The position numbers and the translations under genes were made by a program. From NCBI RefSeq assembly GCF_009909105.1, contig NZ_JAAAPK010000002.1, forward strand, positions 413,827 to 477,826: DNA of 64,000 nt, given 5' to 3'. Positions 61,001 through 63,977 of this stretch are shown here, one piece after another (the stretch's first letter is position 1; each line of letters begins with the position of its first letter). The notes beneath the pieces were generated by a model. The model was not told where the DNA came from. It did no database searches and worked only from the letters and a program-made list of their open reading frames with translations. Source of the stretch: Corallococcus exiguus. GTDB lineage: Bacteria; Myxococcota; Myxococcia; Myxococcales; Myxococcaceae.

Positions 61001-62727
61001 TCCAAGGTCACGTCGGCGAGCGCTCCCGGGACAGTGACGGGTACGCCAGTGCCAGCCACGAAGGCCTTCGCCAGTCCCTCCACCAGCTGTCGGATCGGAA
61101 GGCGGGTGCCGGGATCGGTCTGCCCATCCAGGACCCAGCCGTCCCCATCAGCGAGCCGGCTCACGACGATCTCGCACGCCAGCGCGGGCGCCGCGTCGGG
61201 ATCCGGATCGGCGGTGCCGCCCACCGGCGAACCCAGCGTGAACGTGCCGCCAATCGTCGCCGAGATCGACGGGGTCGCCTGTCCGTCGTATCGGGCCTCG
61301 ATGGTCCGGATCGTGACGTTCGGCAGGGCGCTCGACGAACCCTCGAGGCTGGCGACGAAGCCGTACTGCTGCTGTGCCGGCGCGACGTCGATCGAGAACG
61401 CGTCGACCTGGACCTCCGGCAGGTAGCTGAGTCCCGGCAGGAAATCCGGGAGGAGGGTCGACAGCGGCATGGCCTGGTCCGTGTCGCTGGTGACGGTGAA
61501 GACGAAGCTGTCGTCAGCCGACGACTGCGCGGTGACCCGCAGCGGACAGGGGTGCTCAAGGGATGCGGTAGCGCCGAAAGAGAGCGAGGGCGTGCCGTCC
61601 GTGCGTGTGAACGTGAGCTCGAGTTCCTCGATCGCGATGGCGCTGAAGGTCTGGAACGGCTTGAACCCCTTGAGGTCCACCGAGAGCGTCGCGGTCGCCC
61701 GCTGAATCGCCCCGGCCTGCGGATCAACGCTGAACGCGAGCCGGGTCAGCGAGATGTCCTGGGCGACGGCGTGAACCTGGGAGCCAAGCTCCGACGGCAG
61801 CGCGGACAGCGGGTCCACGGGGAAGAAATCCTCGAGCGCGGACAACGCGTCCAGTGTGACGTTGGCGAAGGTGACGTCGCACGAGAGCAGACGGGAGTCG
61901 GCGGTGGGGAGGTTGGCGACCAGCTGACCTGTCGCGCTGTTCGGCAATGACAGCGTTGCCTTCAGCGACATCAGCGGAGTGACGCCCGATACGGGGGCCG
62001 GCGGGGCTCCGGATGCCGATGGAGCATCGTCGTCGTCATCGTCACCGGGGGCGTCTTCGTATTGGACCTGCTCCGTGGCGAATCGGCACGACACGTCCGC
62101 GAGCGTGACCTTGCCGAACGAGACGGGGAATGGGCTGGTGGACAGCTCGAACAGGGGCAGCGTCAGGTCCGTCACGGCGCCGTACAGCACTGGAGCGGCC
62201 TTCGGGTCGACGAACGGCTGCAACAACGGAAGGCTGGCGGCCATGTCGAAGGGACCGACGAGGCTCAGGCCGCGTGGCAGCGCGACACGGGTCACCGGGT
62301 CGACGTACGGGCCCGACGCAATCACGAACCGCAGGTTCGCCGTGCTCAACCCGCGAAGGGCTGACGAGGCGATGATCGGAAAGCGCGCCGCCCCCGGCGC
62401 GAACACCTGGTCCAGCGTCCAGGCGCCACCTGGCGTGACGTCGAGGACCAGGGAGATTCCGGTGTCGTCGGGCGTCAAGGTCATGGCGAACCCGCAGCCC
62501 TGGAGCTGCTGGAACGCGCCCACGCCGCCGACGAGCACGCTCTTGCCGTCGGCGCTGGGAGACACGGTCGCGGAGGCAAGGGCGACCACGCCGCCGTCGA
62601 AGTATTGCCCGAGCAGCGTTGCCAGCTCGCTCGAACCGGCGAGCGTGCCGGTGAAGGCAAGCCCCCCGTCGCTCGGGTTCCGCGCGGCGTTCAGCGCCTG
62701 GGTGAGACTTGCGACGTCCACCGTCAT
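58051..62727 (-). CDS. Hypothetical giant protein, 1558 aa, no signal peptide, internal poly-Asp linker
   Basis: Real start ATG 62725-62727 (MTVDVASLTQ) overlaps the stop of the upstream gene in an ATGA. The 289 codons the track adds upstream (to 63594) are Arg-rich out-of-frame noise overlapping the upstream gene. Confidence 0.65.
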   Translation of the reverse strand: MTVDVASLTQALNAARNPSDGGLAFTGTLAGSSELATLLGQYFDGGVVALASATVSPSADGKSVLVGGVGAFQQLQGCGFAMTLTPDDTGISLVLDVTPGGAWTLDQVFAPGAARFPIIASSALRGLSTANLRFVIASGPYVDPVTRVALPRGLSLVGPFDMAASLPLLQPFVDPKAAPVLYGAVTDLTLPLFELSTSPFPVSFGKVTLADVSCRFATEQVQYEDAPGDDDDDDAPSASGAPPAPVSGVTPLMSLKATLSLPNSATGQLVANLPTADSRLLSCDVTFANVTLDALSALEDFFPVDPLSALPSELGSQVHAVAQDISLTRLAFSVDPQAGAIQRATATLSVDLKGFKPFQTFSAIAIEELELTFTRTDGTPSLSFGATASLEHPCPLRVTAQSSADDSFVFTVTSDTDQAMPLSTLLPDFLPGLSYLPEVQVDAFSIDVAPAQQQYGFVASLEGSSSALPNVTIRTIEARYDGQATPSISATIGGTFTLGSPVGGTADPDPDAAPALACEIVVSRLADGDGWVLDGQTDPGTRLPIRQLVEGLAKAFVAGTGVPVTVPGALADVTLDAVQVHVDTHSGNASFACSLETTVESEPIKLLLSIDLTKKDAEYTYAFGGTLQVGPLRFTLGFDKDPAATSFIASYSQQPGAPSHISLQRLIAAVSPALAADVPADIDIDLEDAKLVFARKTGDTDAGASFAFGLDLKMTVGLSDLPVVGHMLPPDLDLSIDGLQVTYCSSALSAAQVAALNPQLPSGVTPFPSGDLPAGVSVSADVRCGDAVHPVRLGLSDPSDGGRQATARVRAASSSAAPAGASGGTTKWFDLQKTLGPISLRRIGLQYSGGSLFFLLDAALSFGPLTLGLDGLGLGSPLASFEPEVQLDGLSVAFDAGPVAIDGALLRVDTKRAGVTHEYAGAVTIEVPPYLISGVAGYAETGGSPSLFIFAQVVGALGGPPPFFVVGLMGGFGYNSRLLLPAVDAVDQFPFVAGLVDPMVLGSASAPLDVLDALDGTGGKAAVLTPSAGDGWIAAGVMFRSFELILGRALVVVTFGHGFEVALLGLASASLPQGASPDSAYAYAELQLEATLDVDGGTFSVLASLTPNSFLLTRALRLTGGFGFCLWFGKSQYAGDFVLAIGGYHPAFTIPDWYPRPARVGYNWSVSSAVVVKGGSYFALTPTAIMAGGSLEVLFHAGDLRAWFTAYADIMIRWKPFFFQADIGVGIGASYRLNLGFTSVTLSVELDATLTLWGPPTGGTVHIDLAICSFNISFGADPPDSSALRLDWSRMKTLLPTATGQAAPTAAQADSREPAILTREIGRGLIRRDGDIWIVRADELMFTTHSAVPASCLQYSYTVPGSSESTANKTFPRPSSAPASINIRPMGLAGVTATHTVRLSSPEGDCDLSNWAPTVVTCSLPEALWGAPLAAGAAPLPTAVMIPDLPTGVSFTAPRSGLSGDMAGPVEPATLVTELGTGALPLDVSTQRPSTPAPTADPGVLAAIRKAVDDDVRTAQQALVAALASLNAAPPTSDPLSLFAAQADVLLTDTPLTAASIG

Positions 62728-63977
62728 CTGCACCACCAGAACTGACGGTTGTTGGCGTAGATGTTGACCGCCTGGGGAGTGGTCCCGCCAAAGGAGTAGG
62801 CAGTCGGCGTCGCGGCGCCGACGCTCCACACGTTGAGGTTGGCCTTGAGAACAAAGGCCACCAGCCCTGCTTCCGGCAGGACCATGGCTCCCTGATTGAG
62901 CAGGCGAAGATATCTTGTGTATGCGCTGCGAAATCCTGCATCCAGGAAGAGGTTCTGGGTCGTGTCGACGGTGGGGCCAAGATGGATGGCTTCGACGGAG
63001 TCTCTCAGGCGGAGCTGCATCGCGGCGAATACCCACTGCTGGATAGCGCTCGACGGAAAGCGCTTGTCCTGCTCGTAACCCTTGAGCTCCTTGACCACCT
63101 GCTTCCGCAGCTCCGCGGCTTTTGAGGTGAAATGAGGACTGTCGCCGAACGACAGACCCTCCACCGCATGGAACAAGGAATTCCCATCCTCGTTGGAGGT
63201 CAGCACCGGCCGTGGCGCGGATGTGGCGTCTGGAAATTGAAGGGTGATGTCCGCCCACACGGGCAGGTGATCGCTCAGACCGGAGCCGCCTTTTTGTGTG
63301 GCATAGACGCGATTGAAGACCCACTGACGCCATGCACCGCGATCCGCATTCACGACATGCGGCCCCAGCGCTTGGAGCTCGTCCTCGATGATGTCGATCG
63401 CGTCGGAGGTAGGCGGGGCGCCTGGCGCCGGAGCGGAGTATTGACACTTCGCCACGAAGCCGTTGGCGTGTGAATTCAGGACGAAGATGTTGTCGTAGGC
63501 ACTGCGCTGTTCGGGAGCGCCATCGCGGTCGCGGCCGTACATGGTCGTGACCGTCCGCGCTGCTCGTGTCGGCGTCCCGGGCCAACTGACACACGCGGTG
63601 TAGTGGGTGAGCAGGCTTTTGTAGGCTGCGTCAGCCACCGGGGCGTCCATCTTGCAATTGAAGTCACCCAACACAATTGTATCAAGGGTGGGGAGCGGGG
63701 CGAAGTCTGGCCAGTAGGTCGGTAGGGTGCGGCCATCCCTTCGCCAGACACCGCCGCCGACTTCAGGAAGCCTGGCCAGTTGTTCGACGCCCTTCACCTC
63801 GTCGGTGCTGGACTTGGTCCTGCCGTCAGGAAGCCGCGCGTGATACGAAATCACGTTGAGGGGCAGCCATGTTTTACCACTGCTGAGCAGGAAGGTCGCG
63901 AGGGCAGGGCGACGGCTGGACCACGCTCCGCAGTCGATGTCGAGGATCTCTGGAGGAGACAGCAGGTCGATGCTCAT
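62724..63977 (-). CDS. Fusion of an EEP (endonuclease/exonuclease/phosphatase) domain with an OTU-like domain whose Cys-box is DGNSLFHA; first gene of the operon. The frame stays open to the window edge.
   Basis: EEP motifs in order: WLPLNVISYHA, IVLGDFNCK, YDNIFV, SDHLPVWADI. It is followed by NEDGNSLFHAVEGL (OTU Cys-box with Ser) and LVAFVLKANLNVWSV (OTU-like). Confidence 0.6.
   Translation of the reverse strand: MSIDLLSPPEILDIDCGAWSSRRPALATFLLSSGKTWLPLNVISYHARLPDGRTKSSTDEVKGVEQLARLPEVGGGVWRRDGRTLPTYWPDFAPLPTLDTIVLGDFNCKMDAPVADAAYKSLLTHYTACVSWPGTPTRAARTVTTMYGRDRDGAPEQRSAYDNIFVLNSHANGFVAKCQYSAPAPGAPPTSDAIDIIEDELQALGPHVVNADRGAWRQWVFNRVYATQKGGSGLSDHLPVWADITLQFPDATSAPRPVLTSNEDGNSLFHAVEGLSFGDSPHFTSKAAELRKQVVKELKGYEQDKRFPSSAIQQWVFAAMQLRLRDSVEAIHLGPTVDTTQNLFLDAGFRSAYTRYLRLLNQGAMVLPEAGLVAFVLKANLNVWSVGAATPTAYSFGGTTPQAVNIYANNRQFWWCR

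Follow-up and report, generated by a model that had tools for sequence, protein, structure and literature searches.

To our knowledge, work on bacterial OTU domains has dealt almost exclusively with deubiquitinase effectors from intracellular pathogens and symbionts. The present analysis concerns a stretch of 64,000 nucleotides (nt) from Corallococcus exiguus (contig NZ_JAAAPK010000002.1, positions 413,827 to 477,826; referred to as the window) and the gene that runs off its end. The encoded protein joins an N-terminal endonuclease/exonuclease/phosphatase (EEP) domain to a C-terminal domain of predicted OTU fold, and its gene heads a five-gene cassette that also encodes a giant DUF6603 protein.

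The canonical triad of OTU enzymes consists of a Cys and an H-aromatic-D/N/E box (PMC7396840). In comparison with the OTU deubiquitinases (e.g. wMelOTU, OTUD3 and vOTU of Crimean-Congo haemorrhagic fever virus, CCHFV; PF02338), the window protein differs at the Cys, His and His positions, where it carries Ser, Ala and Gln. Moreover, the members of its family lack a direct Pfam OTU match, do not conserve the acidic residue at His+2, and carry the OTU domain fused to a nuclease-like domain in bacteria of environmental sources. An inactive OTU pseudo-enzyme is known in FAM105A/OTULINL (PDB 6drm), but that protein is eukaryotic, is not fused to an enzyme domain and has only the fold in common with the EEP-OTU proteins, with no further sequence relationship, whereas inactivation is recurrent within the EEP-OTU family. 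DNase I, DNase1L3 and CdtB differ from the EEP-OTU protein in that the latter lacks a signal peptide, has about 100 extra residues inserted, ends in an OTU domain and belongs to a cassette that also encodes giant proteins; the sequence match to the DNase I family (E 0.05) is not significant by itself.

In the literature searched, a single case was found described of a genetic element in which Exo_endo_phos and OTU recurrently occur together, namely the eukaryotic Helentron (HLE2) transposons with their EEP endonuclease and OTU domain (PMC11417382). Those elements, however, have a Rep-helicase transposase, a two-domain EEP-OTU protein is not reported for them, and the cassette is devoid of a RepHel-like gene. 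In bacteria, Gillespie et al. 2018 (PMC6133264) remark in passing that some non-rickettsial OTU proteins carry Exo_endo_phos. The proteins concerned were found by a recognisable Pfam-type OTU and are discussed as DNA-processing modules; no cassette, DUF6603 or catalytic loss is described for them. The initial annotation, made from the DNA letters alone, did not recognise the fusion as a described bacterial architecture, and this one remark is the only trace of it that the literature search found; the protein is, in addition, not a singleton but a member of a family found in five phyla. Searches for EEP+OTU and OTU+NACHT conflict systems in the literature returned nothing relevant. The EEP and OTU folds are each well known, and so are inactive OTU domains (FAM105A). 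Within the literature searched, three elements nevertheless appear to be undescribed: the EEP-OTU fusion family, an OTU domain that escapes detection and shows recurrent, coupled loss of its catalytic dyad, and the fixed association with a DUF6603 cassette. We consider it fairly probable that the 530-residue, cytoplasmic EEP-OTU protein is a working DNase I-like enzyme that carries a dead OTU domain as a docking module within this cassette.

The EEP-OTU gene extends beyond the window

An open reading frame (ORF) of 417 codons (62724..63977, reverse strand) is present at the end of the window and holds the motifs NVISYHA, LGDFN, YDNIF, SDHLPVWADI, EDGNSLFHAVEGL and AVNIYANNRQF. A search of 5.8 billion proteins retrieved the full-length protein of 530 residues (WP_139917798.1, here P0001), identical in sequence to the window ORF and named 'exonuclease/endonuclease/phosphatase family protein [Corallococcus exiguus]' by NCBI. 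The public Logan contig L004, which is identical to the window across 11,277 nt, places the true start 316 nt past position 64000, so that the ATG at 63977 is the internal Met114 and the start initially assigned there results from the cut at the window end. Two EEP motifs, the first (SWN with Asn10) and the second (LQE with Glu43), likewise fall outside the window: the EEP motifs quoted in the initial annotation are indeed present, but the set that it called full is not complete within the window. Two further points of that annotation stand. The gene is the first of its operon, with the upstream gene (ABC2_membrane) divergent and separated by a gap of about 290 bp in L004, and its stop codon overlaps the start of the gene for the giant protein, in agreement with the L004 gene calls (3302-4894 for EEP-OTU and 4891-9567 for the DUF6603 gene), which also overlap by 4 nt. 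The ATGA overlap is consistent with translational coupling of the two genes. The features of the gene are as follows:

62724..64000, reverse strand: 3' 1277 nt of the EEP-OTU gene (residues 107-530 and stop codon), from L004 and WP_139917798.1
63237..64000, reverse strand: in-window part (residues 107-360) of the EEP domain, probably DNase I-like, from alignment and model
63840-63842, reverse strand: codon of the predicted EEP catalytic residue His159
63657-63665, reverse strand: codons of the predicted EEP catalytic residues Asp218-Asn220
63492-63494, reverse strand: codon of the predicted EEP catalytic residue Asp275
63267-63272, reverse strand: codons of the predicted EEP catalytic residues Asp349-His350
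62727..63236, reverse strand: OTU-fold domain (residues 361-530), predicted to be catalytically dead
63177..63179, reverse strand: TCC codon of Ser380, aligned with the OTU catalytic Cys, from sequence and alignment
62742..62756, reverse strand: degenerate His box (H-x-x-x-H-F in the active members), from sequence and alignment
62754-62756, reverse strand: Ala521 codon GCC, within the degenerate His box
62742-62744, reverse strand: Gln525 codon CAG, within the degenerate His box
62724..62727, reverse strand: ATGA overlap of EEP-OTU stop and DUF6603 gene start (TGA 62724-62726, ATG 62725-62727)

A single nucleotide separates the Ser380 codon TCC from the Cys codon TGC, and the Gln525 codon CAG from the His codon CAC. 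A sequencing error at either site was considered and is unlikely, given that the identical sequence occurs in several assemblies and in the Logan contig; NCBI groups three assembly-level protein accessions under the one entry WP_139917798.1.

The EEP domain has a complete active site

The full-length protein matches Pfam PF03372 (Exo_endo_phos) with 28.8 bits, above the cut-off of 24.5. The 417-residue window fragment has no Pfam match because the first two EEP motifs lie outside the window, and with the same fragment NCBIfam and a phmmer search of PDB gave nothing useful. An AlphaFold2 model of the whole protein, built from an alignment of 24 sequences, reached a predicted local distance difference test score (pLDDT) of 85.5 and a predicted template modelling score (pTM) of 0.89, and the EEP domain is predicted to fold as a four-layer alpha/beta sandwich. 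Structure prediction followed by a Foldseek search, a check proposed in the initial annotation, matched the model to TDP2, EEPD1, nocturnin and neutral sphingomyelinase in PDB at E about 1e-10, with no discrimination among the EEP enzymes.

The eight catalytic and metal-binding residues (Asn10, Glu43, His159, Asp218, Asn220, Asp275, Asp349 and His350) are all found in P0001 and are invariant in all of the 35 family members covering each site. On the strength of this predicted and complete site we regard the domain as an intact EEP enzyme, presumably a metal-dependent phosphodiesterase. In a search of the PDB sequences with the EEP-family profile, DNase I and DNase gamma were the sole matches, albeit weak ones (E 0.05-0.75). 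An hhalign comparison of the family with bovine DNase I gave a probability of 92.7% with the catalytic motifs in register; the DNase I sequence used is confirmed by the PDB match over its first 41 residues. The domain is, by these comparisons, probably DNase I-like, and most probably a nuclease, for which we infer DNA as the substrate. Unlike in the secreted DNase I, the N-terminus (MPTLRVLSWN) leads directly into strand 1 and leaves no room for a signal peptide.

A C-terminal domain of predicted OTU fold, undetected by Pfam

None of the 24 C-terminal domains tested individually with Pfam matched PF02338 (OTU), two of them giving weak Peptidase_C36 matches, and the C-terminal family profile found no OTU among the PDB sequences. 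When 1.84 billion representative proteins were searched with the profile, the domain was connected to recognised OTUs. Two of the matched proteins, P0047 (E 5.6e-10) and P0048 (E 7.4e-10), score above the Pfam OTU threshold over exactly the residues matched; a Wolbachia pipientis protein and a Waddliaceae 'OTU domain-containing protein' were matched as well. The link to Pfam OTU is transitive only, through P0047 and P0048. An hhalign comparison of the family with P0047 gave a probability of 97.3% and aligned EDGNSLFHA of the window protein on ADGSCGFHA. With CCHFV vOTU, only the C-terminal strands were aligned (24% probability), and this is treated as weak support. The domain is predicted to take the papain-like OTU fold with a pLDDT of 91. 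Similarity was found for both halves of the protein, directly to PF03372 for the EEP domain and via P0047 and P0048 for the OTU domain.

In the hhalign alignment Ser380 coincides with the catalytic Cys, and in the model it lies at the N-terminal end of the first helix. This places a Ser at the nucleophile position of the OTU Cys box, as read in the initial annotation and now borne out by the family alignment and the bridge to P0047. Its reading of AVNIYANNRQF as the His-box position without a His is equally upheld: the active members have I-Y-H-Q-x-L-H-F, corresponding to the 'H-aromatic' box of the OTU enzymes, and the window protein has Ala521 and Gln525 instead. Gln525-Phe526 takes the place of the His-Phe/Tyr that is found in all Cys-bearing members reaching the site. 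At His+2 the family has Ser, Phe, Cys, Asn, Gln, Tyr or Ala, and the window protein has Trp. The 'active' members are presumably peptidases, an activity that we regard as putative.

Proteins of about 1700-1800 residues are matched by the OTU-like profile too, at their N-terminus. One of these, P0044, was scanned and carries a NACHT NTPase domain, an architecture that we take to be associated with STAND-type immune proteins; P0072, P0117, P0129 and P0148 are similar to P0044 in length and in the position of the profile match. In another protein, P0035 (3532 residues), 24 separate stretches match positions 123-161 of the profile as a repeat.

Coupled and recurrent loss of Cys and His

The family sample comprises about 35 clusters from five phyla, and 33 members cover the Cys site. 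The Cys is present in 22 of them and absent in 11, where it is replaced by Ser (five members), Gly (three) or Glu (one) or is deleted (two). Among the homologues, the Ser is not conserved. The general-base His (525) is found in all 22 Cys-bearing members reaching the site and is lost in nine of the 11 members that lack the Cys. This coupling of the two losses (Fisher p = 1.4e-6) was calculated without correction for phylogeny. The Cys-less members are scattered in a neighbour-joining tree of the EEP domain, and for each of the 11 the nearest relative by EEP-domain identity is a member with the Cys/His/His set, which indicates several independent inactivations of the OTU domain within the family. 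The combination of Cys and His, being the majority state, is read as ancestral.

Identity in the OTU domain is 0.39 between active members and 0.30 between active and Cys-less members; the corresponding values for the EEP domain are 0.50 and 0.45. The OTU domain of the Cys-less members thus diverges faster than that of the active ones, and the EEP domain hardly differs between the two groups. Some cassettes do without the OTU domain altogether. The EEP protein of a Flavobacteriaceae cassette ends at residue 358, and the first gene of the cassette on contig L013 encodes a different EEP protein of 470 residues without an OTU domain. Together with the invariant EEP site, these cassettes suggest that EEP activity is constant and OTU activity optional; the nuclease-like domain looks essential to the cassette and the OTU domain dispensable.

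The DUF6603 cassette and its surroundings

The limits of the cassette were set by an analysis of G+C content at third codon positions (GC3) together with public gene calls. Its genes are:

62724 to beyond 64000, reverse strand: gene 1, EEP-OTU
58051..62727, reverse strand: gene 2, DUF6603 protein of 1558 residues (WP_139917800.1), ATG at 62727
55747..58041, reverse strand: gene 3, 764 residues, without recognisable domain, conserved in the cassette
52022..55750, reverse strand: gene 4, 1242 residues, without recognisable domain, conserved in the cassette
50280..52010, reverse strand: gene 5, about 576 residues, Thr/Val-rich, last of the cassette, start codon approximate

An ORF of 1847 codons (58051..63594, reverse strand) was discarded as an in-frame prolongation of the DUF6603 gene upstream of its real start (ATG at 62727) and through the EEP-OTU gene, which is read in a different frame. 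The in-window part of the EEP-OTU gene (62724-64000) has a G+C content of 61.8% and a GC3 of 0.74-0.78, even over both domains, and the next three cassette genes (52022-62727) have higher values (69-70% and 0.87-0.89, respectively).

The gene order EEP, DUF6603, about 760 residues, about 1220 residues and about 500-580 residues recurs in Myxococcota, Actinomycetota, Alphaproteobacteria and metagenomes, and partly in Bacteroidota. Named carriers are a Solirubrobacteraceae metagenome-assembled genome (MAG), Sphingomonas trueperi, a Rhodobacteraceae MAG and several metagenome contigs. On contig L013 (1-10000 and 22000-24689) the cassette copy is flanked by transposases of the rve, DDE_Tnp_1_4 and Transposase_mut types and by a phage-type integrase. 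On the Solirubrobacteraceae contig (L001) a second, stand-alone EEP gene of 317 codons (4340-5293) is found about 5 kb upstream of the cassette, near genes for LexA, TerD and sigma-70.

None of the species-representative genomes of Corallococcus or Myxococcus contains the cassette. On the window side its flank (44222-49782) is of housekeeping type, with genes for a CDP-alcohol phosphatidyltransferase, a TPR/AIM24 protein, an SLT lytic transglycosylase, an FAD flavoprotein of the succinate dehydrogenase/aspartate oxidase type and a rhomboid protease; past the window end L004 has divergent genes for an ABC-2/Wzt transporter and a glycosyltransferase. Given this housekeeping flank and the absence from the species representatives, the copy in the window appears to be an accessory insertion present at strain level. 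The flanks, with housekeeping genes on one side and the ABC transporter and glycosyltransferase on the other, give no support for a defence island.

The four partner proteins gave nothing beyond DUF6603 in searches of Pfam, NCBIfam, PHROGs, PADLOC and PDB (phmmer and alignment profiles), and they lack Walker A motifs, transmembrane segments and signal peptides. The EEP-OTU protein and the products of genes 2-4 were compared with PADLOC-DB, together with two additional ORFs, and none matched. DUF6603 itself is not mentioned in the literature searched. It also occurs together with a metallo-beta-lactamase domain in a protein of 2535 residues (P0173) from the lichen fungus Letrouitia subvulpina, and is thus not confined to bacteria. 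Judged from sequence, the EEP-OTU protein is the sole recognisable enzyme of a conserved, horizontally mobile cassette.

Proposed role of the EEP-OTU protein

In the mechanism that we propose, residues 1-360 would form the working enzyme, a DNase I-like metal-dependent phosphodiesterase, through which the protein serves as the cassette's enzymatic subunit. The protein would be co-translated with the giant DUF6603 protein by way of the 4-nt overlap, and its OTU-fold domain would pack against the EEP domain, in line with the pTM of the model, which suggests a fixed arrangement of the two. In most lineages the OTU domain, with its Cys/His pair, may cleave a peptide or isopeptide bond, e.g. in the processing of a partner or the removal of a modifier. 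In the Corallococcus copy, where the Cys has become Ser380 and the two His residues Ala521 and Gln525, it would only bind, and would have been retained as a folded docking module. The cassette would then require EEP activity always and OTU activity only sometimes. Both this non-catalytic role and the physical association with the cassette proteins are inferred.

The window copy is most likely a pseudo-peptidase, the option favoured here among those raised in the initial annotation, since Cys/His is the majority state of the homologues and the window copy one of several inactivations. That the domain could still be a hydrolase with Ser380 as the nucleophile, a serine variant of the papain/OTU mechanism, is very improbable. 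The Ser does lie exactly at the nucleophile position at the start of the first helix, it recurs in five family members, and His383 (Cys+3) is almost invariant in the family; but the general base has been lost too, with Gln525 in its place and Ala521 for the second His, the losses of Cys and His are tightly coupled across the family, other lineages carry Gly or Glu for the Cys or delete it, and both Ser and Gln are one nucleotide away from Cys and His, as expected of simple inactivating substitutions. A functionless relic in neutral decay, with only the EEP domain of importance, would account for the lost catalytic residues, for the faster divergence of the OTU domain in inactive members and for the existence of cassettes with an OTU-less EEP protein. 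We nevertheless think it unlikely, as the domain is of full length without frameshift or stop and has a confidently predicted fold, the family-invariant non-catalytic residues (Thr373, Asn379, Ala384, Gly387, Ala400, Arg404 and Tyr469) are kept, at least 11 lineages retain a full-length dead domain instead of truncating it, and the OTU domain appears to pack against the EEP domain. Still less plausible is a bifunctional anti-eukaryote effector, in which a CdtB-like DNase I-type genotoxin and an OTU deubiquitinase would be delivered by the DUF6603 cassette into grazers or fungal prey and the dead Corallococcus domain would target the protein by binding ubiquitin. The cassette proteins are without signal peptide, transmembrane segment or NTPase motif, no secretion-system genes were found near the cassette loci examined, the identified carriers are environmental taxa or MAGs and not known intracellular bacteria, about one third of the lineages can do without OTU activity, and the same OTU-like domain also heads NACHT proteins, so that other contexts occur.

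Several observations weigh against a DNase I-like enzyme with a retained docking module. The assignment to DNase I combines a structural ranking, the non-significant match at E 0.05 and an hhalign comparison with a DNase I sequence confirmed over its first 41 residues, and the substrate of an EEP enzyme is not reliably readable from its fold. A phosphatase or phosphodiesterase acting on a lipid, a sugar phosphate or a nucleotide, resembling sphingomyelinase, nocturnin or mannose-6-phosphatase, is a possibility to be reckoned with, if not one that we would expect. A cytoplasmic DNase without signal peptide or obvious immunity gene would need to be restrained in some other way. Simple decay would also account for the faster divergence of the OTU domain in Cys-less members, even the 'active' members do not conserve the acidic residue at His+2, and the PADLOC, PHROGs, NCBIfam and PDB searches gave no clue to the role of the cassette. 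More speculatively, and with considerable doubt, the cassette might be a new, horizontally mobile conflict or effector system with the EEP-OTU protein as its sole enzyme. The OTU domain would act in it as a switch or for docking, as a protease in most lineages and as no more than a binding module where the dyad is lost, and would time the release of the nuclease from a giant structural complex or its activation there.

The EEP-OTU family places an OTU-fold domain that is not detected by Pfam in soil and marine bacteria of five phyla, and the cassette provides a first functional handle on DUF6603.

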